Assembly (NCBI GenBank): GCA_965219875.1
Contig: CBDCOW010000003.1
Span: 1,002,458-1,066,457 of the forward strand
From: Dehalococcoidia bacterium
Lineage (GTDB): Bacteria; Chloroflexota; Dehalococcoidia; SHYB01
DNA length: 64,000 nt
Direction: 5' to 3'
In this document: positions 2,389 to 38,458 of the stretch, piece by piece
Layout: every line of letters begins with the position of its first letter
How positions within the stretch are numbered: position 1 is the first letter of the stretch
Notes under the pieces: model-generated
Told to the model about the DNA's origin: nothing
Databases searched by the model: none
What the model saw: only the letters and a program-made list of their open reading frames with translations
Made by a program: the position numbers and the translations under genes

Positions 2389-3306
2389 ATGACATCCCTG
2401 CCCGGCATCTATTCGATGAGCGTGACTCCCTTCTCCGCCGACGGAGGGCTGGACGAGGACGCGCTTCGCTCCCACCTGCGCTATCAGGCCGCGGCCGGCG
2501 TCGGAGTCTATTTGGGGAGCTACGGGAGCGGCGAGGGGCACCTGCTGCGCGAGCGCGAAGTCGAGCGGATCTACGAAATCGCCGTGGAGGAACTGAAGGG
2601 CAAGGTCCCCCTCTTCGCCGCCGCCATCGGCTTCACCGAGACCGACTACATCATCCATCAGGCCAAACGCGCCGCGGCGATTGGCGTCGACGCCGTGCAG
2701 ATTCACCCACCGCGGCCCGGTACTCCGCTCCACCGTCCGACCCCTCCCGAGCTGGAGCGTTTCTACGACGATATCCTGAGCAGCGTGACCACACCGGTCC
2801 ACCTCTCGAACCAGACGGCGATGGTATCCAGCGAAGTGCCCGTGGCCTTCTTCGCCAAGCTCGTGGAAACGTATGACCACATCGAGATGATCAACAACAC
2901 GAGCCAGGACTTGAGCTATCTGGTGCGGCTCCTCGACGCTATCGGAGACAAGGCGCTCGTCAGTGTGGGAATGGTCACCCAACTGATCACCACGCTGGCG
3001 CTGGGAGGCCACGGCTCCCTGTGCTTCGAGCCCAACATAGCGCCGAGGCTCACCATGTCGGTGCTGGCGGCCTACCGGTCCGGCGACCACGCCCTTGCGC
3101 TGGAGCGGTTCGCGCATCTCCTCCGCCTCAACGAAATCCTCTCGAAATACCAGAACCCTCGGTCTCTCAAGGCCGCGCTCAGGGTGCTCGGGCTGCCCGG
3201 AGGCTTCCTGCGCCGGCCCTATCTGGACTTGGACGAGACGGCGCACCAAGACATCAGCGCGACGCTGGACCGGCTGCGGATCAAAGAGATCGAGGGGCTA
3301 GCGTAG
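2389..3306 (+). CDS. Dihydrodipicolinate synthase / N-acetylneuraminate lyase (DapA) family protein
   Basis: GIYSMSVTPFSADGGLDEDALRSHLRYQAAAGVGVYLGSYGSGEGHLL is the typical DapA-family N-terminus (TPF..DG.ID...L). ATG at 2389. The track ORF begins at a TTG at 2353. The gene lies opposite-strand between the permease and ATPase genes of one ABC locus. Confidence 0.8.
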   Translation: MTSLPGIYSMSVTPFSADGGLDEDALRSHLRYQAAAGVGVYLGSYGSGEGHLLREREVERIYEIAVEELKGKVPLFAAAIGFTETDYIIHQAKRAAAIGVDAVQIHPPRPGTPLHRPTPPELERFYDDILSSVTTPVHLSNQTAMVSSEVPVAFFAKLVETYDHIEMINNTSQDLSYLVRLLDAIGDKALVSVGMVTQLITTLALGGHGSLCFEPNIAPRLTMSVLAAYRSGDHALALERFAHLLRLNEILSKYQNPRSLKAALRVLGLPGGFLRRPYLDLDETAHQDISATLDRLRIKEIEGLA

Positions 3307-3332
3307 ACCCCTCCCTCGGAAGCGGCCCGGCG

Positions 3333-4343
3333 CTAGTACAGGTGGCAGGCGACCCGGTGGCCCGGCGCGGCCTCTTTCATGATGGGCTCCACCTCGGCGC
3401 AGATATCCATCACGTGCGGGCACCGCGTGCGGAAACGGCACCCTGAAGGCGGGCTGATGGGCGAGGGGACCTCCCCTTGCAGCACGATCCGCTCCCGGGG
3501 GCGGGCCGGATTGGCGCTCAAGGTCGCAGAGAGCAAGGCCCGGCTGTAGGGGTGCAAGGGGTTGTTGAAGAACTCCTCGCTCGGCGCCAGCTCGGCGAAC
3601 TTCCCCAGGTACATGATGGCGACCGTATCGCCCATATACCGGACCATGGAGAGGTCGTGCGAAATGACGAAGAAGGTCAGCCCAAGTTGAGCTTGCAGAT
3701 CTTTGAGCAGGTTGACGATCTGCGCGCGAATGGAAACGTCGAGGGCCGAGACCGGTTCGTCGAGCACCAGCATCTTCGGCGCGAGGCCCAGCGCGCGGGC
3801 GATCGCGATCCGCTGGCGTTGGCCGCCGCTGAACTCGTGCGGATAGCGCTCGGCGTGGACTGGCGACAACGTCACCTGCTCGAGTAGCGACGCCACCTTG
3901 TCGTTGACTTCTTGTTTCGAGAGGCGCTCGTTGATCACCAGAGGTTCGGCGATGATGCTCCCGACACGCAGCTTGGAGTTGAGCGAGCTCCAGGGGTCTT
4001 GGAACACGGCCTGGACGTTGCCCCGGTAAGCCCGCGTCTCCTCTCGGGTCAAGCTGTCGATTTCGGCGCCTTGCCAGCGGAGCATCCCGCCGGTAGGCCG
4101 TTCGAGCTTGAGGAGCAGGTTCGCCAGCGTCGTCTTGCCACAGCCGGACTCGCCCGCCAAGCAAAAGGTCTCGCCCTCGGTAATCTCGAAGTCGACGCCG
4201 TCGACGGCCTTCACCGTCCGCTTGCCGTAGGCGAACACGCCCCGGCCCACGGCGAAATGCTTCTTCACCCCCAGGGCCTCAACAAGCGGGGGTGCGGTCT
4301 GGCTGGGCGCTGGGCCTACCGCCTCTTGGACCTGCTGGGTCAC
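3333..4343 (-). CDS. ABC transporter ATP-binding protein, DppF/OppF-like
   Basis: Walker A GESGCGKTT, signature FSGGQRQRIAIARAL, Walker B LVLDEPVSALD, H-loop ISHDL, plus the C-terminal oligopeptide-ABC extension with CRFRTRCPHV. Proposed GTG start at 4343..4341, overlapping the upstream TGA (GTGA). The longer track ORF runs into the upstream gene. Confidence 0.85.
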   Translation of the reverse strand: MTQQVQEAVGPAPSQTAPPLVEALGVKKHFAVGRGVFAYGKRTVKAVDGVDFEITEGETFCLAGESGCGKTTLANLLLKLERPTGGMLRWQGAEIDSLTREETRAYRGNVQAVFQDPWSSLNSKLRVGSIIAEPLVINERLSKQEVNDKVASLLEQVTLSPVHAERYPHEFSGGQRQRIAIARALGLAPKMLVLDEPVSALDVSIRAQIVNLLKDLQAQLGLTFFVISHDLSMVRYMGDTVAIMYLGKFAELAPSEEFFNNPLHPYSRALLSATLSANPARPRERIVLQGEVPSPISPPSGCRFRTRCPHVMDICAEVEPIMKEAAPGHRVACHLY

Positions 4344-5317
4344 GCGGCGTGCTCCTCGGCCCGCCAGCACTTCGCCGTGCGCTTCTCGCCAACAGCGAAC
4401 TCCGCGGGGAATTCCTTCTCGCAACGATCGAAGACGTAGGGGCACCGCGGCGCGAAGTGACAACCCGGCAGCAGCTCGAAGGGCGACGGCGGCTGCCCCT
4501 CGATGGAAGGAAGCCGGTCGGGTTTCTCCTCGATGCTGGTGACCGACTTCAGCAGTGCCTCGGAGTAGGGATGCGCGGGGCCGGCGAAGACCTCGGGGAC
4601 CGGCCCATATTCGACGATTCGGCCCGAGTACATCACGGCAACGGTGTCGCACACGTTCGCGACGACGCCGAAGTCGTGGGTGATGAACAGAATCGCCAGG
4701 TCGAACTCTTTCTGGAGGTCTTGCAGGAGGTCCAGATATTGCGCCTGGATCGTCGGGTCGAGGGCCGAGGTTGGCTCGTCGGCGATGAGAATCTCGGGCG
4801 TGGGGGCGATGCCGATAGCCCCGACGACCCGCTGCCGCATGCCGCCGCTCAACTGATGCGGAAAGTACCGCGACGCCGCCTCGGCGTCGGGGATGTGGAC
4901 CCGCCGCAGCAACTCCAGCACCCGCTCCTTGACATTAACGCCCTGGCGGTCGTGCAGCCGCACCGTTTCGCCGACTTGGTCGTCGACGCGGAACACCGGG
5001 TTCAGCGAGGTCAGCGGGTCCTGCAGGATCATCGCGATGCGCCCGCCCCTGACCTGCTGCATCTCCTTTTCGGTCTTGCCGACCAAATCGTCGCCGTGCA
5101 GCTCGACGCGGCCGCTGGTGATCCGGCCCAGCGGAGGGAGCAGGCGCATGATCGAAAGGGCGGTCATGCTCTTTCCCGAGCCGGACTCGCCCACGATGCC
5201 GAGGGTCTCGCCGCGGTGGAGGTCGAAGTCGACGCCATCGACCGCACGCACCACCCCGCGCTTGGTGTGCAACTCGGTCCGCAGGTCACGCACCGAGAGG
5301 ACTACGTCCTGTTCGAT
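4340..5317 (-). CDS. ABC transporter ATP-binding protein, DppD/OppD-like (start codon uncertain)
   Basis: Walker A GESGSGKSMT, signature LSGGMRQRV, Walker B LIADEPTSALD, H-loop ITHDF and CHFAPRCPYV C-terminus. The homologous N-terminus is LIEQDVVLSVRDL. A strong AAGGAGG lies at 5332..5338 just upstream, but the only in-frame upstream ATG is far away at 5488, so the start may be non-canonical near 5317. Confidence 0.8.
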   Translation of the reverse strand: MEQDVVLSVRDLRTELHTKRGVVRAVDGVDFDLHRGETLGIVGESGSGKSMTALSIMRLLPPLGRITSGRVELHGDDLVGKTEKEMQQVRGGRIAMILQDPLTSLNPVFRVDDQVGETVRLHDRQGVNVKERVLELLRRVHIPDAEAASRYFPHQLSGGMRQRVVGAIGIAPTPEILIADEPTSALDPTIQAQYLDLLQDLQKEFDLAILFITHDFGVVANVCDTVAVMYSGRIVEYGPVPEVFAGPAHPYSEALLKSVTSIEEKPDRLPSIEGQPPSPFELLPGCHFAPRCPYVFDRCEKEFPAEFAVGEKRTAKCWRAEEHAA

Positions 5318-5418
5318 GAGCCTCCACCCTCCTTCAGGTTGGTCGGAGTATACCCCACCGTCGGCCCCAAGCCTGAACCCACTTCTATCAGGTTCACGGG
5401 TGGTAGAATTGATGGGCC

Positions 5419-5847
5419 ATGACGCCCCAAGCCCTCCCGGATACGGAGCTAAGCGCTGGACCTCGCGGCATGAAGGCCTTCCGGACAATCATGCTGGTTT
5501 TGGCCGTAGTCCAAGCCGCTTTCGCGGGACTCACCGCCATGGTGGGCGCGTTCGCGGACGGAGGAGATGTCTGGTCGCGGCTGTTGATCGTCCTGCTACA
5601 TCCGCTGAGCGCCGCCGCCTTGCTGGTGCTGGTGGTGTCGCCCCGACCCGCCGCCGCGTCGGCCTTCGGTGTCGCAGCACTGCTGACGGCGACGGTGACC
5701 GCCGACGTAGCCTTCGCTCTGCTGATCGCCCAAGGCGCCGTGAAGGGCGACTGGGGGCTTCCTCTGGCGTTCGCCGCGATTCCAGCCGTCGGTATCGCCT
5801 ACGCCCTGACCCTCACCCTGCTGCGGCCGCGGTCGAGCCCCCGCTAG
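5419..5847 (+). CDS. Hypothetical small membrane protein (4 predicted TM segments)
   Basis: 142-aa ORF, divergent from the ABC ATPase gene, with very hydrophobic Ala/Leu-rich helices. No recognisable domain. Could be a GC-artefact ORF. Alternative ATG at 5470. Confidence 0.35.
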   Translation: MTPQALPDTELSAGPRGMKAFRTIMLVLAVVQAAFAGLTAMVGAFADGGDVWSRLLIVLLHPLSAAALLVLVVSPRPAAASAFGVAALLTATVTADVAFALLIAQGAVKGDWGLPLAFAAIPAVGIAYALTLTLLRPRSSPR

Positions 5848-7495: not shown

Positions 7496-8401
7496 TCAGG
7501 CAGATTGAAGGGTGGCGACACTGAAGACGACGGAGAAGGGCTTGCAGTAGATGACCACGCTATTGAAGACCGACACGTCCACGCCAGCAGGGATCACGTA
7601 GTTCTGGTTCCCCCGGTTGCCCTTCAGGTCTCCCAGATCGACGTACCCGCCCAACTTGACCTCGTCCGACCGGGTCGGGTCCTCGTGGGGCGACAAAATC
7701 ACGTGGAGAGCCGGGCCATTGGTCACGTCAAGGTTTTCCAGCCGGAGCAAGTGGCCGCCGCCGGGAGTGCTGAAGATGATTGCTTGACCACTCCCCCGGT
7801 GAAAGCTGTCGGCGTCTTTGAAGTTGCCCTGCTTCACCTTCCGGGCTTCGTCCTGTTGATTGACGTTCGCCATGATGACCGGCTCCATCATGCGGGCGCC
7901 CCGTTCTACCATCTCCATGTCGGCCGCGGCGCGGACCATCGTGAACCCTTCCGTCAGGGCGGCGTGGTCGTCGTCACTCATTACCGTGATAGAACTGCCG
8001 GACGCCAGCATCGCCCCGGCGTTTATGGCCGAGGCTCCGGGCATATCCTCCCTCATCACCGGGTCGTCAACCATCGCCATCCCGGCCATAGCTCCCTCTA
8101 CGTCGGCCCGTTCCATTCCCTCGGGCACCACGGCATTGAAGGCGAAGGGGAACTCTTCCTCCACGGTAACGTTGATGAATAACGGCGATCCAAGCGACCA
8201 GCCAACCCAAAGGGTAATAGCCAGCATTGGGACTGAAGCGATGCCGAAGGCCACGCGATTGCGCCAAATGACCTGATGCCAGCCGCGCCGATAGCCGAAG
8301 GCGAGGACTGCGGCGATAAACACCAAAGTGGCGGCCCCGATGAGCCAACGGTACTCGTAGAGGCTGGCGAACGTGCGTTCAACATCACCGATAGTCGACA
8401 T
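7496..8401 (-). CDS. Membrane-anchored DM13 (electron-transfer) domain protein with Met-rich linker
   Basis: N-terminal TM helices. A Met-rich segment (MAGMAMVDDPVMREDMPG...MVRAAADMEMVERGARMMEPVIM) follows. The C-terminal ~110 aa match the DM13 domain pattern (NFKDADSFHRGSGQAIIF...LRLENLDVTNGPALHVILS...KGNRGNQNYVIPAGVDVSVFNSVVIYCKPFSVVF). ATG at 8401 is preceded by GGAGGG. The track start at 8413 is a TTG. Confidence 0.7.
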   Translation of the reverse strand: MSTIGDVERTFASLYEYRWLIGAATLVFIAAVLAFGYRRGWHQVIWRNRVAFGIASVPMLAITLWVGWSLGSPLFINVTVEEEFPFAFNAVVPEGMERADVEGAMAGMAMVDDPVMREDMPGASAINAGAMLASGSSITVMSDDDHAALTEGFTMVRAAADMEMVERGARMMEPVIMANVNQQDEARKVKQGNFKDADSFHRGSGQAIIFSTPGGGHLLRLENLDVTNGPALHVILSPHEDPTRSDEVKLGGYVDLGDLKGNRGNQNYVIPAGVDVSVFNSVVIYCKPFSVVFSVATLQSA

Positions 8402-8546
8402 TGCACCCTCCAAGGATCCTCTGCTTTTCGAGCCCAGCCCAGTCCGGACCTGAGCACTAAGGTACTAGATTCTGCCCAGCTGGTGGACCCGAACTTGGTC
8501 AAGACCGGAGATAGGCGTGAGATCGCTAGGATGAATGTGGTCGACT

Positions 8547-9347
8547 CTAGCGGGCCTTCCACTCGGCGGGACGCTTTTCAGTGAACGCCAGCGGTCCTTC
8601 CTTGGCGTCCTCGGTTTGGCTGATCTGGGCGTAGATCATGTCGCCGAATTTCTGCGACTCTTCCATCGCCAGACGGCGCCAAAAGTGCATCATCTTCCTT
8701 GTCGCCTGGACCGCGAGCGGCGCGTTGGCGGCGATGGCGCCGGCGATTTCGATTGCCCGCGGCATCAGTCGGTCCGGTGCCGTGACCTCATGGACGAAGC
8801 CAATGCGGCGCGCTTCCTCCGCCGACATCGTCTCACCCGTCAGGGCGTAGTACATGGCCTCGCCGAAATGCGTCACCCTCGCAAAGTGATGAATGCCATA
8901 AATGGCAAGAATGCCACGCTTCACTTCGGGCAGGCCGAATGTCGCCTCCGTCGAGGCGATGCGGATGTCGCAGTCCATCGCCTCCTCCATACCGCCCCCG
9001 AGCGCAAGCCCATTGACCGCCGCGATGATGGGCTTGGGGCTTCGAGAGAAGATGCCCGGCCCCCGGGGCTGGCCCATGTCGGCGCGCTCCCGGCGTTCCC
9101 CGGACGAATCCTCCTCGGCGTCTTGATCGCGCTGGGCCATCTCCTTCAGGTCCGCTCCCGCGGAAAAGGCGCGGCCCGTGCCGGTCACGATGGCCACCCG
9201 CATACTGGGGTCCTCATCGAAGTCGTCCATGGCCTCCCGCCGCTCGGCGATCATCTGCCTCCCGAAGGCGTTGAGACGGTCGGGACGATTCATGGTGAAC
9301 AGCGCGTAGTGCTCGGCGTCACGCTTCTCGTAGATCCAGTACGGCAT
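8547..9347 (-). CDS. Enoyl-CoA hydratase/isomerase (crotonase) family protein
   Basis: HYALFTMNRPDRLNAF...VTGTGRAFSAGADLKE...IIAAVNGLALGGGMEEAMDCDIRIAS is the crotonase fold signature. Confidence 0.85.
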   Translation of the reverse strand: MPYWIYEKRDAEHYALFTMNRPDRLNAFGRQMIAERREAMDDFDEDPSMRVAIVTGTGRAFSAGADLKEMAQRDQDAEEDSSGERRERADMGQPRGPGIFSRSPKPIIAAVNGLALGGGMEEAMDCDIRIASTEATFGLPEVKRGILAIYGIHHFARVTHFGEAMYYALTGETMSAEEARRIGFVHEVTAPDRLMPRAIEIAGAIAANAPLAVQATRKMMHFWRRLAMEESQKFGDMIYAQISQTEDAKEGPLAFTEKRPAEWKAR

Positions 9348-9366
9348 AGATGGACTCCTCGCGGGG

Positions 9367-10077
9367 CTACTCGGACCGAACGCCCGCGGCCCTTTCGCGA
9401 TAGTGGCTGTCCAATTGACCGTGGACTTGGCTTACCCGGCCCAGCTCGGTCACCAGAGAATCAAGCTGGCCGCCGGGGATGGCCATCAACATCAAATCGT
9501 CCCCGACGGTTGTGTTGATCCGCATGCCGACGCAGCCGAAAGACTGCGACGGCCTGCCCTCAGTGAGGGCTATAGGAACCGCGGCGCAGCCCGGTCTGCC
9601 ATAGACGCCGGTGGGCGCCGCAGCCCAATTCATGAGCCCGCAGCTTTCCGCCACGACCATCGCCTGCCGGGGCGTAGCCCACACTAGCGCGAGATCAGGC
9701 TCGACGGGGAACCGGCTCAGCGGCCCATAGACGATCCCCGCGGACGCTAGGCCGTTCTTCGGTACCTTCTCCACTTCCTCTTCCCGTATGTAGGACGTAC
9801 CGCACATCATCCCCACGTCCTCCATCAGTCGCCCCATCGTCTCGTCGGGCAGTGGGAAGCCCATGACCATCGCACCAAGGGGGCAGTTAAAGTGATCGTC
9901 AGCGGCGGCGTAGAACACGTCGGTCTCAGCCTCATGCCAGAAGGCGCAGGTGGAGGGGACCGCCTTGCCAATCCGGGATACCCCTTCCGGCTGCCCTTGC
10001 ACGAACGCCAGTCCGATCACAGGCTTCGTCAGCGACAATGTACGTTCAATGAATCCGGCCGTTTCGCCGTGCTGCAT
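9367..10077 (-). CDS. DUF169-like protein (conserved Cys-containing, function unknown)
   Basis: 236-aa ORF co-oriented with the hydratase and acyl-CoA dehydrogenase. It has conserved Cys/His positions (CAFWHE, HFNCPLG, CGTSY) reminiscent of DUF169. The family assignment is from memory only. Confidence 0.55.
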   Translation of the reverse strand: MQHGETAGFIERTLSLTKPVIGLAFVQGQPEGVSRIGKAVPSTCAFWHEAETDVFYAAADDHFNCPLGAMVMGFPLPDETMGRLMEDVGMMCGTSYIREEEVEKVPKNGLASAGIVYGPLSRFPVEPDLALVWATPRQAMVVAESCGLMNWAAAPTGVYGRPGCAAVPIALTEGRPSQSFGCVGMRINTTVGDDLMLMAIPGGQLDSLVTELGRVSQVHGQLDSHYRERAAGVRSE

Positions 10078-26864: not shown

Positions 26865-27246
26865 CCATCAACGCATGCCCTGCCGAATCTCGCAAGGCGC
26901 CGCCGCGCAGGCGACTGAAAAGAGCCCGGTGTCGCCGATCTGTTGACTACTGAGTTGGCCGTAGAACAGCAAGACCACTCTGGCACGCCGCCGACAGGGC
27001 TACCGGCCCATTCGGCGTCGAGGAACAACGCGGCCAAATCAAGCTATGGCATCGCGACCCCGGGCGCTGTCCGCAATTAAGCCGGACCGGAAGTGGTGGG
27101 CCGATGTGTACGATAGATGGCACTGTCTTCGAGATGTGGATTGGCAGTCTGTGAGCTTTCCCAAACACTTAGCTCGGGTATTTTGGTGGGATAGGGTTAG
27201 GCAACGGAAGTGAGGGCAACCTGTCTACCAGCTCAAATCCTATTTC

Positions 27247-27928
27247 CTAATCACCGTGGCTTCCCCAGTTTCGCCTTACCTCAATCATGCCTCCCAAACA
27301 CCGCTTCATCAATACGGCAATGCCCACCATGCACTGGATCCAATTGTCCACGTTCTTCTGGGTGACGCGGGGGATCTCGTAAGTGAGACCACGTAACGCA
27401 AACCCGATGCGTCCGCTTTGGCCATCTTCAGGCTCCGTCAGGTCGTCCACCAAACTAAAAACCTGCTGAGTGCCGAAATGCACGAAGGCATTCGACCAAT
27501 TGTAAAGAGCGACAACGTTCGCGTCAGGCCGTCCTGAATCGAGGCGGGCTTGCAACCTTTTCACCAAGTACCGCTCGCGCATTAGGTGGCCTGAAGCAGA
27601 CTTGAGCTTGAATTCGATCCCCAGCCACAATGCGTTGGGCAAACTCGTGGTGACCTCCTATGTACTCGTCGCTGGCTACGGCTATGAGAACATGCTCCAG
27701 CGTGGGCCTAATGAATAGAGTCGCAGCGTAGTGATTATCCTCGCGCACCATTTTTGCGAATGCGTCGATAAACGCGTTCGTCCGTTTGGCTAAGGCGGGA
27801 ACTACGAATTCACAGGCTCCACAAATCGCTCCGTCAGATGCTAGCCACCAATCCTTGTGGAGGATATTGATCGAATCTATCTCAGATTCGAGTTCCTTTA
27901 ATGTTTGCTCCAAACCTGGGAACTTCAT
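27247..27928 (-). CDS. Hypothetical protein(s) of AT-rich islet; two overlapping ORFs (27524..27928 and 27247..27642) that may be one frameshifted gene
   Basis: The upstream ORF ends in a low-complexity tail (RIVAGDRIQAQVCFRPPNARAVLG...) after EFAQ. The downstream ORF begins protein-like only 6 codons after an in-frame stop. No domain recognised. Confidence 0.35.
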
Positions 27929-28015
27929 TTCATCCTTTCACTCGGCTGACAGTCTGACCCTCGTTGACAGAAGGGAAGTGGGCCACTTGAACGTTGCCAT
28001 CTGGCTTATGTCCCG

Positions 28016-29008
28016 TTAAAGTGCCTTTGTCTCCTCTCTTTCCTTCCTACGGTAGTAGTAGGCCAATTGCTGGCAGCTTTTATCGCAGTACTTCTGCCGA
28101 CCGTGCATTGGCTCAAAATAACGTCCACAGCCAGCTCGCTCACAAAGCATCGCAGGACGGCTACGCCCCGAGAGTTCCAGCATGAAATGTGTGTAGAGCG
28201 AGCTCAATAGGCAGTCTGGAAAGAAGAAGATCTCACCTTTACGAAAGGGGAGCACGGCGGGACTGACGTGGCCCCTTAGGCTGCTGTTAACCTCTCGATG
28301 CACAAAGTAGCGGACTGGTTCTACGGGATCTCCATAATTCCAGCGTTCCAATAGCTCTACATCATTACCGTTCTCCTCGTGAGCTAGTACCCTCACTTCC
28401 GAGTGTCTCGTGCGGGTGGCCAGATCCTTGTCCCGGCGTAAGTAATCACGAAACTCGTCGGGGCGATGCCGCATGAATTGTGCGAGGTCGGGTCGGAGCT
28501 TTCCGTCTATGTCCACGAGATAGAGTCGAACCTGTTGCGGTGTGCCCTGTGACGTCCACTCGACCAATTGACTCAATTCCCTCCGGCCTCCCCGCATGAT
28601 GAACTCCCATAGGGAGACCAGTCGGGCCATGCGCTCGATCTCCTTCTTCCAGACCCCAACAGGCTCCCCGATTACCATTCGCTGGTCGCTCGAGCCTGAG
28701 TCCTCAAGCCATGACCCGTGACCCAGGAGCCCATATTTGTCGGCGAAGGCAACGATGGACTCGGCAATGGGCTTAGTCCGAGCAAACCGCCTGTGCAGAT
28801 TAGCAACGGCCAGTGGTGAGTACTGGCGCACGTACAGGCTGTCCGGTCTGACCAACCAGGGTCCGGCAGTATTCTTCCCAGTCCCCTTGTCATCAACTAC
28901 GACGAGTTCCTCACGCAAGCTGAAACCATCCTCAGGCACTCGGAGGAGAGCTGCAAATGGTCCTCGTGTCATTGCCCGGAATGGCTGTCGTTCTCCCTCT
29001 AGCGTCAT
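28016..29008 (-). CDS. Hypothetical protein with C-terminal Cys4 zinc ribbon (islet gene)
   Basis: 331 aa from ATG 29008. C-terminus LCERAGCGRYFEPMHGRQKYCDKSCQQLAYYYRRKERE. No recognisable catalytic domain. Lower GC than the genome background. Confidence 0.5.
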   Translation of the reverse strand: MTLEGERQPFRAMTRGPFAALLRVPEDGFSLREELVVVDDKGTGKNTAGPWLVRPDSLYVRQYSPLAVANLHRRFARTKPIAESIVAFADKYGLLGHGSWLEDSGSSDQRMVIGEPVGVWKKEIERMARLVSLWEFIMRGGRRELSQLVEWTSQGTPQQVRLYLVDIDGKLRPDLAQFMRHRPDEFRDYLRRDKDLATRTRHSEVRVLAHEENGNDVELLERWNYGDPVEPVRYFVHREVNSSLRGHVSPAVLPFRKGEIFFFPDCLLSSLYTHFMLELSGRSRPAMLCERAGCGRYFEPMHGRQKYCDKSCQQLAYYYRRKEREETKAL

Positions 29009-29129
29009 CTTTATCCTCCTAACAGAAGTTCGATGCAAACTAGATGTATATACTCTAACAATGTAGCTTTAAGCGCGTTATTATGATTATAACCATAGAA
29101 ACCATCAGTGAGAAAGGGGTAGTCGGATT

Positions 29130-29411
29130 ATGGGCACGAAAGTATCATTTGAAGCTCGGTCTATTCTGCAGGAGGCAGTTTGCGGAGATGGCCTAATCAG
29201 CTTCACTCGTACCTTTGGTGGACAGTCCATCGCCACGAATGGTAAGGCAATGATTCCAGATGAGAAACCGAGAACCATCGCTCAATGGATCGGTGGCCTT
29301 GAGGAACTAGCACGGCTTGGCTACATCAGGGACATCGGTTACAAGGGAGAGGCGTTTGAGGTTACAAGAGAAGGTTACGAAGCGGCAGATGAGATACTCG
29401 ATACTGTCTAG
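29130..29411 (+). CDS. Hypothetical small protein (islet gene)
   Basis: 93-aa ORF preceded by AAAGGGG 8 nt upstream. Divergent from 28016..29008 across an AT-rich promoter region. Confidence 0.4.
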   Translation: MGTKVSFEARSILQEAVCGDGLISFTRTFGGQSIATNGKAMIPDEKPRTIAQWIGGLEELARLGYIRDIGYKGEAFEVTREGYEAADEILDTV

Positions 29412-29600
29412 CTCCGTCTGATGGGGATTCGGCGATGCCTAATGGGCCCCTATTCTACGGACTGGCCTCCATAGCAGCTCATCCCGCAGGAGCATCCACT
29501 TTCGGGGCTCAAGGGAGAGTCTAACCTGAGGGAGGGAGACGTGGGAGTCCCAAGCCGCCATTACCTATGAGGAGAGACCGCAACCGGAGGAGAAGAGCAT

Positions 29601-29750
29601 ATGAACGAACGAACTGTTTACGAGTTCCCAGGCTCCGATCGCGAGTTAGAGATCGACTCAGATGTAGCATGGCACACTGGCCCTGGCCGAGGCCGGGTAC
29701 ATGTTTCCCCGGAGGCGGGGCAGGTGATCGTCCACCCAGGCCAAGGTTAG
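29601..29750 (+). CDS. Candidate small ORF (49 aa) with strong RBS, running into degenerate tandem repeats; an amber stop separates it from 24 further in-frame repeat codons (to 29825)
   Basis: GGAGGAGAAGAGCAT precedes the ATG. The peptide is MNERTVYEFPGSDRELEIDSDVAWHTGPGRGRVHVSPEAGQVIVHPGQG, then TAG, then VVVKSGQGQVVVTKDGPGQVIVQG. Confidence 0.25.
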   Translation: MNERTVYEFPGSDRELEIDSDVAWHTGPGRGRVHVSPEAGQVIVHPGQG

Positions 29751-29892
29751 GTAGTCGTCAAGTCGGGTCAGGGTCAAGTAGTCGTGACCAAGGACGGCCC
29801 AGGTCAAGTAATCGTCCAAGGCTGATGGGATGGTGTCCCAGCGATGGGCTCCGGTACCACCTACTGTCCACTATGTTAAGGAAATTCAAACC

Positions 29893-29968
29893 TGGTGGAC
29901 CCGAGGGGAGTCGAACCCCTGACCTCCTGAATGCAAATCAGGCGCTCTCCCAACTGAGCTACGGGCCC
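29893..29968 (-). tRNA. tRNA-Ala (anticodon UGC), CCA encoded
   Basis: Manual fold of the reverse complement: acceptor GGGCCCG/CGGGUCC with the G3:U70 Ala identity pair, D-arm GCUC-AGUUGGGA-GAGC, anticodon stem CCUGA with loop UUUGCAU, T-arm AGGGG-UUCGACU-CCCCU, 3' ACCA. 76 nt. Confidence 0.9.
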
Positions 29969-32843: not shown

Positions 32844-33207
32844 ATGCCCTGGGAGGTCGAGTACACAGACGAGTTTGGGCAGTGGTGGCTAGGGACTAGC
32901 GGAGGGACAACAGGATGCCGTGACCGCCAGGGTCGAACTGATGATGGAGCATGGCCCCAACCTGCCTTTTCCCTTCTCCTCGGGCATAGTGGGATCCCGC
33001 CACGGGGTGATGCGGGAACTTCGAGCGCAGAGCGGCGGCAGGCCCCTACGGGTCTTCTACGCCTTCGACCCTAGGAGAACGGCCATACTTCTCATCGGCG
33101 GCGACAAGACGGGCAACGACAGGTTCTACGAGGAGTACGTGCCGGTTGCCGACCACCTCTACGACGAGCATCTGGAGGAACTGCGCAGGGAGGGACTGAT
33201 CAAATGA
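32844..33207 (+). pseudogene. HigB/RelE-superfamily toxin (mycobacterial HigB2/3-like, COG4683-type) with a +1 frameshift around 32892..32894
   Basis: Frame A gives MPWEVEYTDEFGQWWLG and then garbage. Frame B resumes with GLAEGQQDAVTARVELMMEHGPNLPFPFSSGIVGSRHGVMRELRAQSGGRPLRVFYAFDPRRTAILLIGGDKTGNDRFYEEYVPVADHLYDEHL. Removing one G from the GGG run joins them into a full-length family-typical toxin. Confidence 0.6.
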
Positions 33208-33539
33208 GTGGACGTCATCCGTTCAGCGAGCTGACCAAAGACTTCACGCCAGAGCGCCGCCAGCGCATCGAGGCCTTGAAGGGCGAGATGCTCGCCGAAA
33301 TGCCGCTGCACGAGCTTCGCCGGGCCCGGGAGCTGACCCAACGGGACTTGGCGAACATGCTCAGGGTGAACCAGCCCGCCATTTCCAAGCTGGAGCAGCG
33401 GACCGACGTGTACGTCTCCAGCCTTCGCGCTTACATCGAGGCAGTGGGGGGAAAGCTGAAGATCGTCGCCGAGTTTCCCGAAGGTGAGGTCGCCATTACC
33501 AACTTCTCCGAAGTGGGTGAGGCCGAAGAAGCTTCCTGA
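33204..33539 (+). CDS. XRE-family HTH antitoxin (HigA-like)
   Basis: LTQRDLANMLRVNQPAISKLEQRTDVYVSSLRAYIEAVGGKLKI is a Cro/C1-type HTH. It overlaps the toxin stop by 4 nt. Confidence 0.75.
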   Translation: MSGRHPFSELTKDFTPERRQRIEALKGEMLAEMPLHELRRARELTQRDLANMLRVNQPAISKLEQRTDVYVSSLRAYIEAVGGKLKIVAEFPEGEVAITNFSEVGEAEEAS

Positions 33540-37780: not shown

Positions 37781-38458
37781 GGACCTTTGCACAACCGTCC
37801 GCGGGCAAGCATGGGTGGGGCCGGGAGGTCTTGCCTCTTCTCCCCACGGGAGAAGATTGAGATGAGGGGCCCCCTCGCAACCGCCACGGGTTATCGAAGT
37901 CCGCCACCCTCGCGGTCATTCACTCCGGTTACGCAAAGGTCTCCGCCAGAGGAGACCTTTGCACAACCGTCCGCGGGCAAGCATGGGTAGGGCCGGGAGG
38001 TCTTGCCTCTTCTCCCCACGGGAGAAGATTGAGATGAGGGGCCCCCTCGCAACCGCCACGGGTTATCGAAGTCCGCCACCCTCGCGGTCATTCACTCCGG
38101 TTACGCAAAGGTCTCCGCCAGAGGAGACCTTTGCACAACCGTCCGCGGCAAGCATGGGTGGGGCCGGGAGGTCTTGCCTCTTCTCCCCACGGGAGAAGAT
38201 TGAGATGAGGGGCCCCCTCGCAACCGCCACGGGTTATCGAAGTCCGCCACCCTCGCGGTCATTCACCCCGGTTACGCAAGGGTCTCCGCCAGAGGAGACC
38301 TTTGCACAACCGTCCGCGGCAAGCATGGGTGGGGCCGGGAGGTCTTGCCTCTTCTCCCCACGGGAGAAGATTGAGATGAGGGGCCCCCTCGCAACCGCCA
38401 CGGGTTATCGAAGTCCGCCACCCTCGCGGTCATTCACCCCGGTTACGCAAGGGTCTCG
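37781..38458 (+). repeat. Head-to-tail tandem array of ~4 copies of a 171-172-bp MITE-like unit (same TIR family)
   Basis: Unit starts at 37783, 37955, 38127 and 38298, more than 98% identical. Each junction forms a perfect 12-bp palindrome GCAAAGGTCTCC-gccaga-GGAGACCTTTGC. There is an internal 9-bp hairpin TCTTCTCCC-cac-GGGAGAAGA. Confidence 0.9.

Follow-up and report, generated by a model that had tools for sequence, protein, structure and literature searches.

The subject of this report is a small islet at positions 27100-29892 of a 64-kb stretch of a Dehalococcoidia bacterium genome (contig CBDCOW010000003.1), hereafter the window, to which all coordinates refer unless a comparison locus is named. 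The islet is a discrete, strain-specific, horizontally acquired insertion that arrived via site-specific recombination at the 3' end of a tRNA-Ala gene and left that tRNA intact. The reading that we prefer, to which we assign a probability of roughly 55%, is that of a non-autonomous element carrying a putative DNA-binding sensor or regulator of 330 amino acids (aa), here called the hallmark protein, together with a 93-aa partner, and having no effector in the copy seen here. Within the islet, the 93-aa and hallmark genes form a conserved divergent cargo, while two further, decayed genes are passengers.

Insertion at the CCA end of tRNA-Ala

That the islet was inserted is established by empty sites. 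The protein encoded by the flanking thiolase gene is encoded identically on four other contigs, two of which, the conspecific loci L001 (5.37 Mb) and L002, extend to the tRNA and show the thiolase gene, tRNA-Ala and the Rieske gene with only ~50-130 bp of spacer after the tRNA. Both carry the same tRNA-Ala(tgc) gene, the sequence match being judged by eye. Megablast aligns the window with L001 at ~97.7% identity in two blocks, of 9.8 kb to one side of the islet and 8.1 kb to the other, and breaks the alignment at 26933|29892. The empty site reads ccggaagTGGTGGAcccgagg, and the occupied site reads ggaagTGGTGG|gccgatg at its left junction (27094-27099) and aaacc|TGGTGGAcccgag at its right junction (29893-29898). 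Thus, the insertion of 2,793 bp took place precisely at the CCA end encoded by the tRNA gene and duplicated a 6-bp core, which makes this locus a clean before-and-after case of a tiny, integrase-less element targeting a tRNA CCA tip.

The islet has a guanine-cytosine (GC) content of 53.6%, against 66.0% for the whole window, and is the lowest in GC among all segments of 2,793 bp (mean 66.1%, standard deviation 3.1%). Its target, tRNA-Ala(UGC), lies on the minus strand at 29893-29968, is recognized by ARAGORN (tgc) as well as by the Rfam tRNA model (70.6 bits, the sole match of the Rfam scan), and touches the islet with its encoded CCA-3' end, since the islet stops at 29892 and the tRNA 3' end is at 29893. 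The duplicated hexamer, TGGTGG (CCACCA on the tRNA strand), is present as a right copy at 29893-29898 and as a left copy at 27094-27099, where the islet meets the host spacer (26934-27099), and is the crossover core within the tRNA 3' end. A flanking repeat derived from the tRNA 3' end is therefore present, but it is unusually short (6 bp).

An original prediction, made from the sequence of the window, had described a GC dip next to tRNA-Ala, a tRNA 3' end facing the islet and a genomic island, and proposed a comparison of the locus in relatives; the composition and the two tRNA searches agree with the first two points, and the empty sites of L001 and L002 settle the third. Its left boundary at 26990 has to be moved ~110 bp further in, to 27100, and the direct repeat of the tRNA 3' end that it had failed to find exists as the two short TGGTGG copies.

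At either end, the islet has a non-coding arm. The distal arm (27100-27246) ends in ...CATCTATCGTACACATCGGCCCACCA on the minus strand, and the proximal arm (29826-29892), whose sequence occurs only once in the window, begins on the minus strand with GGTTTGAATTTCC right after the CCACCA of the tRNA; a hypothetical circle junction of the islet would read ...CATCGGCCCACCAGGTTTGAATTTCC... An inverted repeat at 27242-27259 and 29868-29885 was rejected as a pair of terminal inverted repeats, as one of its arms coincides with the stop codon of the 227-aa gene described below, 143 bp in from the end of the islet. A 55-aa open reading frame (ORF) at 27046-27213 on the plus strand begins in host DNA and crosses the left junction, and the portion of it within the islet overlaps with the conserved end piece. 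In the window, L001 and L002, the stretch that separates the Rieske gene from the tRNA (26934-27093 in the window) differs by indels of ~80-160 bp, perhaps scars left by earlier events at this same hotspot.

The same unit is found at a second tRNA. In L009, a locus from the chromosome of a Dehalococcoidia metagenome-assembled genome (OZ220745), an element 86.6% identical over 2,326 bp lies at tRNA-Val(UAC), begins directly after the CCACCA of that tRNA with the shared GGTTTGA(A/C)TTTC, and has the end ...CATCTATCGT.CAC....GCCCACCA in common with the islet. It is flanked by a repeat that matches at 14 of 18 positions and contains a perfect 8-bp core, GCCCACCA. When the two elements are compared, the proximal arms are 88% and the distal arms ~80-83% identical, identity falls to 51% in the host flank past the end, and the synonymous sites of the hallmark gene differ by 25%. 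The absence of an integrase or transposase, as originally predicted, is borne out for recombinases: no ORF of the islet has a Pfam recombinase domain, and tblastn with the integrases of related loci yields no match over the 64-kb window. With the same unit at two tRNAs and no recombinase, the islet would have to be mobilised in trans. Cis-mobilizable elements (CIMEs) are defined as retaining the attachment sites attL and attR, integration and transfer genes being absent (PMC6323972). The islet keeps both arms, conserved with the L009 element, and has no integration genes; an integrase of its own, by which a tRNA island is recognized, is not among its genes. On sequence grounds, the islet thus qualifies as a non-autonomous, CIME-like element.

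As for the recombinase that would act on it, the likeliest helper would be a large serine recombinase. The low-GC islands of Dehalococcoides use a ~540-aa serine recombinase to enter the 3' end of ssrA, and islands devoid of an integrase have been proposed to be cis-mobilizable (PMC3146451). Among the relatives of the islet, locus L008 has two large serine recombinase genes (3795-5477 and 7923-9734; 560 and 603 aa), with Resolvase, Recombinase and Zn_ribbon_recom domains, flanking the same gene module. Moreover, the outer ~60 bp of the distal end of the islet recur in L007, L008 and L009; in L008, this stretch of homologous DNA falls on the 3' end of one serine recombinase gene, and in L007 it lies near recombinase remnants. 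The two L008 recombinase genes are 66% identical to each other and enclose a 93-aa gene, the hallmark gene and a 268-aa gene, so that L008 may be a tandem array of autonomous relatives. A search with the junction CCACCAGGTTTGAMTTTC returned one match, within a coding region and away from tRNA ends, which was taken as chance.

Gene content and the divergent pair

Where three genes had been predicted, the islet holds four, two of them intact and two broken, the fourth being found at 29601-29825 on the plus strand. The hallmark gene occupies 28016-29008 on the minus strand and encodes 330 aa from its ATG, rather than the 331 originally given; the zinc ribbon ascribed to it stands, being a C-terminal Cys4 ribbon of CGNR-like type, followed by a basic helix. 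The match of this ribbon to zf-CGNR (PF11706) is weak (12.2 bits, E=0.16, under the gathering threshold of 24 bits), and the same domain is found at E<=0.001 in two of 138 distant members of the hallmark family. The AlphaFold2 (AF2) model of the protein has a predicted local distance difference test score (pLDDT) of 81.6 and a predicted template modelling score (pTM) of 0.76. With Foldseek, it has no significant match in the PDB, the best being 3h0n (DUF1470; E=0.58), which we take to be a member of the ABATE/CGNR family, and in BFVD the zinc ribbon alone matches. Neither PDB sequences, searched with HMMER, nor IMG/VR contained a counterpart of the hallmark protein.

The partner gene, at 29130-29411 on the plus strand, encodes 93 aa. 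One of five AF2 models of this protein is confident (pLDDT 82.7), and its Foldseek matches comprise eS10, Sso10a-2, SSV1 F-93 and a MarR-type regulator (probability 0.9-0.99, E 0.02-0.1), suggesting a winged-helix-like fold. The ratio of nonsynonymous to synonymous substitution rates (dN/dS) is ~0.25 for the hallmark gene and 0.04-0.14 for the 93-aa gene, which indicates that both are maintained by purifying selection.

The two remaining genes are decayed. At 27247-27928 on the minus strand lies a pseudogene of a 227-aa protein, present as two ORFs (27524-27928 and 27247-27642); the frameshift already suspected there is confirmed, as the intact copy in L007 shows the pair to be one gene with a 2-bp deletion near 27609. 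The L009 copy has acquired an independent nonsense codon (at about 7160), and such repeated inactivation could reflect toxicity or simple decay. The 227-aa family forms 13 clusters, none of which is annotated, and since its members also occur without the hallmark gene, beside a DNA methyltransferase in another mobile island, it is treated as passenger cargo. The protein has no BLASTP similarity to a DpnII-like neighbour of the hallmark gene in L023, and its family has no match to PDB sequences by HMMER. The other decayed gene (29601-29825, plus strand) encodes 74 aa of Gly-Gln-Val repeats and is interrupted by a TAG codon at 29748-29750, in the place of which L009 and L005 have CAG and hence an intact gene. 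Repeats of 27-30 nt at 29718-29815, considered as iterons or arm sites, are coding repeats of this same gene.

In line with the original statement that none of the proteins has a recognisable domain, Pfam, PADLOC, PHROGs and NCBIfam return nothing above threshold for the three annotated proteins, and Pfam and PADLOC give no match for the intact homologues of the two broken genes. In PADLOC-DB 2.0, there are zero matches at E<=1 for the window proteins and at E<=0.1 for the intact homologues of the broken genes.

Between the divergent genes lies a spacer of 121 bp, within the stretch of the islet that is lowest in GC (~46%), which agrees with the earlier description of the 93-aa gene as standing on the opposite strand behind an AT-rich region. 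In every Dehalococcoidia locus, the hallmark gene has ~55% GC and the spacer upstream of it ~45%, regardless of the GC content of the host. Just upstream of the ribosome-binding site of the hallmark gene, at 29029-29048 on the minus strand, there is a tandem direct repeat, ACATCTA-N4-GCATCGA(A), with a spacing of 11 nt, which is a candidate operator or leader element. The consensus of the spacer at this point is ACATCTA-N4-RCATCGA, and CATCGAA is invariant in 12 loci, the spacer being otherwise poorly conserved. At the same place and with a spacing of 11-12 nt, distant loci have other, lineage-specific tandem repeats, namely two copies of TGCGTAACA (L018, L027), of CCGTCCA (L034, L040) or of TCGTCTA (L030), and the comparison with other segments of the same loci gives a crude combined p of 0.002. 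A consensus scan, furthermore, points to two promoter-like sites that are divergent and overlap within 29055-29114: one on the minus strand (-35 at 29114-29109, -10 TATAAT at 29091-29086) and one on the plus strand (-35 at 29055-29060, -10 at 29079-29084). The TATAAT block, which resembles an extended -10 element (consensus TGnTATAAT), is largely conserved in the spacer alignment. Together, the conserved repeat and the overlapping promoter-like sites are suggestive of autoregulation by a sequence-specific binder.

Relatives of the hallmark protein and a proposed function of the pair

The hallmark protein belongs to a very large family. A word-indexed search recovered 71 relatives, nearly all of them from unannotated metagenome assemblies, and the 13 loci recovered from GTDB genomes all come from Dehalococcoidia or Chloroflexota; a profile search extended the family to 4,876 representatives at E<=0.001, 337 of them at E<=1e-30. 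No model of Pfam, NCBIfam, PHROGs or PADLOC covers the body of the family, and nothing useful was found in the literature on CGNR, on TIR in combination with a zinc ribbon, or on PDC-S66, a PADLOC candidate system. Two diverse alignments (A7 and A8) spanned too much divergence to be of use in searching for loci.

In the Dehalococcoidia loci, the hallmark gene is transcribed divergently from a variable partner. This partner is the 93-aa protein in five contexts (the window, L005, L007, L008 and L009), a TIR_2 protein of 254-276 aa (E ~1e-14) in six (L010, L012, L020, L021/22, L023 and L024-26), and a 274-aa protein that contains R-x6-H in three (L006, L011 and L016). The C-terminal domain of the TIR_2 protein (L010, L012) is 70-82% identical to the 93-aa protein of the window, and in four of 138 distant members scanned (P0136, P0189, P0195 and P0215) the N-terminus of the hallmark protein itself carries a fused TIR domain. 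The TIR_2 domain of the relatives matches the ThsB-like, SAVED_TIR and PDC-S66 models, and two distant members of the hallmark family match PDC-S66 strongly. Adjacency to and fusion with TIR are the main argument that the hallmark protein works together with TIR effectors. In the 274-aa partner, the conserved segment LRDFRNYIHP fits R-x6-H, a HEPN-like motif; the protein has no family match and none among PDB sequences by HMMER. L021 (3195-4529) and L022, which come from two assemblies, carry the same TIR-hallmark locus and differ only by a DDE transposase insertion beside the cassette. The cassettes of L023-L026 lie among HsdR (type I restriction), DpnII-like, Schlafen/AlbA_2 and resolvase genes. 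A distant homologue of the hallmark gene in L038/L039 (6023-8931) precedes genes for a PD-(D/E)XK nuclease and for a protein of 834 aa that matches Piwi weakly, possibly a prokaryotic Argonaute neighbourhood.

In another set of more distant relatives, the hallmark gene keeps company with integrases. In L019 and L048, a divergent HTH_17 gene of excisionase type (67-77 aa) faces the hallmark gene, which is followed by a tyrosine integrase; a Prim-Pol gene stands behind the HTH_17 gene in L048, and tRNA-Leu comes after the integrase in L019. The order hallmark, integrase, tRNA-Thr is found in L017, and hallmark followed by integrase in L046; a divergent HTH_3/AAA_25 operon faces the hallmark gene in L027 and a divergent HTH_17 gene does so in L040. 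In prophages and satellites, it is the immunity repressor that occupies this position. A location next to the integrase, divergent from an operon for excision or replication, is seen in L017, L019, L048 and L027, the window having neither integrase nor operon. The position of the hallmark gene in these relatives fits a protein controlling a mobile element at least as well as a defence protein.

In the mechanism that we propose, the hallmark protein would be a sequence-specific, nucleic-acid-binding sensor or regulator, the zinc ribbon and basic helix of which would bind the tandem repeats that occur at 11-nt spacing in its leader, and which would control the overlapping divergent promoters together with its winged-helix-like partner. 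In relatives, the pair would gate an NAD+-consuming TIR effector of abortive infection, carried on the partner or fused to the hallmark protein, and in those relatives that bear an integrase the hallmark protein would fill the position of an immunity repressor. The window copy appears to have lost its effector or never to have had one. Because it keeps the regulatory pair without an effector, it is improbable that, in its present form, it works as a defence system.

Several points weigh against this reading. The winged-helix call depends on a single AF2 model of five and on E values of 0.02-0.1, hhalign detects no profile similarity between the 93-aa family and either the HTH_17 partners or the hallmark protein, and a physical interaction of the hallmark and 93-aa proteins would follow from fusion and adjacency only. 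For the tandem repeats, the p values of individual loci are mostly 0.02-0.4, and several distant loci are without a clear repeat. With regard to mobilisation, the comparison of the distal end with the C-terminus of serine recombinases is not significant at the protein level (p ~0.05), no helper recombinase is found in the 64-kb window, and an identical core of 6-8 bp is seen more typically with tyrosine recombinases than with serine ones.

The alternative that survives best, improbable as we consider it, is a stripped-down lysogeny or immunity module of a small integrative element or satellite, in which the 330-aa protein is a repressor like Stl or cI and the 93-aa protein an antagonist like Cro or Xis, with no role in defence and with the TIR links being secondary. 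It draws on the relatives in which the hallmark gene has a divergent HTH_17/Prim-Pol or HTH_3/AAA_25 operon to one side and, to the other, a tyrosine integrase beside a tRNA, on the overlapping divergent promoter-like sites with their conserved operator-like repeat, and on a partner predicted to be winged-helix-like. However, fusions of TIR with the hallmark protein and with the 93-aa protein are hard to explain by a pure cI/Cro switch, the islet holds no replication, excision or packaging genes to be regulated, and both genes are under purifying selection despite there being nothing left to regulate.

Less probable still is a complete and working anti-phage or toxin system, in which the 330-aa protein senses infection and the 93-aa, the 227-aa or the repeat protein kills or arrests the cell. 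A module of defence or toxin type had been part of the original prediction, and as a lead for the family it holds, thanks to the relatives that pair or fuse the hallmark protein with TIR, to the two distant members matching PDC-S66, to the copies beside HsdR, Schlafen/AlbA_2, DpnII-like and Piwi-like genes, and, by motif only, to the HEPN-like R-x6-H of the 274-aa partner; the independent inactivation of the 227-aa gene in the window and in L009 is also what is seen for toxic genes. For this copy it is not supported: a TIR protein, as expected of a Thoeris-like system, is found only in relatives (L010, L012, L020-L026, P0136 and others), neither TIR nor another effector can be recognized in the window copy, only two of its four genes are intact, none of its four proteins matches PADLOC, the check originally suggested, and the 227-aa family, occurring also without the hallmark gene, is cargo. 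A ThsA/SLOG or SIR2 partner is present in none of the loci examined.

A novel recombinase or transposase in the guise of the 330-aa protein, making the islet autonomous and itself directed to tRNA CCA ends, is very unlikely. It would account for an element that moves as a unit without a known recombinase and for a hallmark gene that is the sole gene always present, and a nucleic-acid-binding zinc ribbon, many invariant His, Asp and Glu residues and a fold that matches nothing known are all compatible with it; but the homology between copies of the TIR type ends at gene ends, namely at two stop codons, with no conserved termini, many relatives stand beside a tyrosine or serine recombinase of their own, and the TIR fusions suit a sensor better. 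Finally, native low-GC DNA with nothing inserted, which has the absence of a recombinase and nothing else in its favour, is refuted by the existence of empty sites, exactly these 2,793 bp being missing from two conspecific contigs, and islet DNA being found at a different tRNA in another genome.

Returning to the non-autonomous element with its regulatory pair, a bolder proposal can be built on it, which we put forward tentatively and as a whole. The islet would represent a new type of miniature, non-autonomous integrative element, moved in trans to the CCA tips of different tRNAs, probably by a large serine recombinase; and the hallmark family would be a new class of zinc-ribbon DNA-binding switches or sensors, acting as master regulators of small integrative elements and recruited repeatedly, by adjacency or fusion, as triggers of TIR. 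Being without an effector and partly decayed, the window copy itself probably has a small direct biological effect. What is most valuable here is rather that the islet leads to an uncharacterised family of very large size, which none of the four libraries searched contains and which is linked with TIR effectors as well as with the control region of integrative elements. If the family does act as sensor or regulator, it would link the immunity switches of mobile elements with abortive-infection defence and would offer a handle on mobile elements in Dehalococcoidia, which are hard to cultivate.

Two other features of the window deserve mention. At 37782-38457, a unit of 171 bp is repeated 3.9 times with 99% identity, and L001 has a single place (3260-3423) to which three successive segments of the window align. 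At 32920-33539, where GC drops locally between selA and mutS2, two small genes of 95 and 111 aa overlap; as their counterparts in L001 have Gp49 (HigB-like toxin) and HTH_37 domains, they are likely a toxin-antitoxin pair.

Comparison with known systems

Among the systems described so far, CIMEs and other integrase-less tRNA islets share with the islet the attL/attR-type repeats at a tRNA 3' end, the deviant GC content, the absence of integration and transfer genes and the existence of an empty site. The islet differs from them in measuring only 2.8 kb, in having a core of 6-8 bp at the CCA tip instead of 15-50 nt of the tRNA, in being found as the same unit at two tRNA species, and in that no helper element was found. 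The ssrA islands of Dehalococcoides, which the large serine recombinase DsiB moves (PMC3146451), occur in the same class of bacteria and likewise combine the 3' end of a tRNA-like gene, direct repeats and low GC, and their recombinase of ~540-600 aa lies on the reverse strand at the island edge, as it does in L008. In contrast, the islet targets the CCA end of a tRNA and not the T-loop of ssrA, its repeat has 6-8 bp as compared with 20 bp, it is without an integration module, and its link to a serine recombinase is indirect.

When considered at the level of its proteins, the islet touches on three further groups. ABATE/CGNR proteins (DUF1470, 3h0n) resemble the hallmark protein in having a C-terminal Cys4 ribbon of CGNR type behind an unrelated N-terminal domain; the scores are, however, far under threshold (E=0.16 and E=0.58), and the 280-aa body of the hallmark protein is unrelated to ABATE. 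The TIR-based abortive-infection systems (Thoeris ThsB, TIR-SAVED and PDC-S66) differ from the window in that it contains no TIR, no ThsA, SAVED or STAND partner, and a hallmark protein that features in no PADLOC model; what they have in common with the family is a TIR_2 domain that, in relatives, adjoins or is fused to a putative sensor. Lastly, the master repressors of mobile elements, such as cI and the Stl of SaPI, have no similarity in sequence or fold to the hallmark protein, which is devoid of a helix-turn-helix and would bind DNA through its C-terminal zinc ribbon. The likeness is one of arrangement: in distant relatives the hallmark gene stands beside an integrase and divergent from an Xis-like or primase operon, and the locus has overlapping divergent promoter-like sites and candidate operator repeats.

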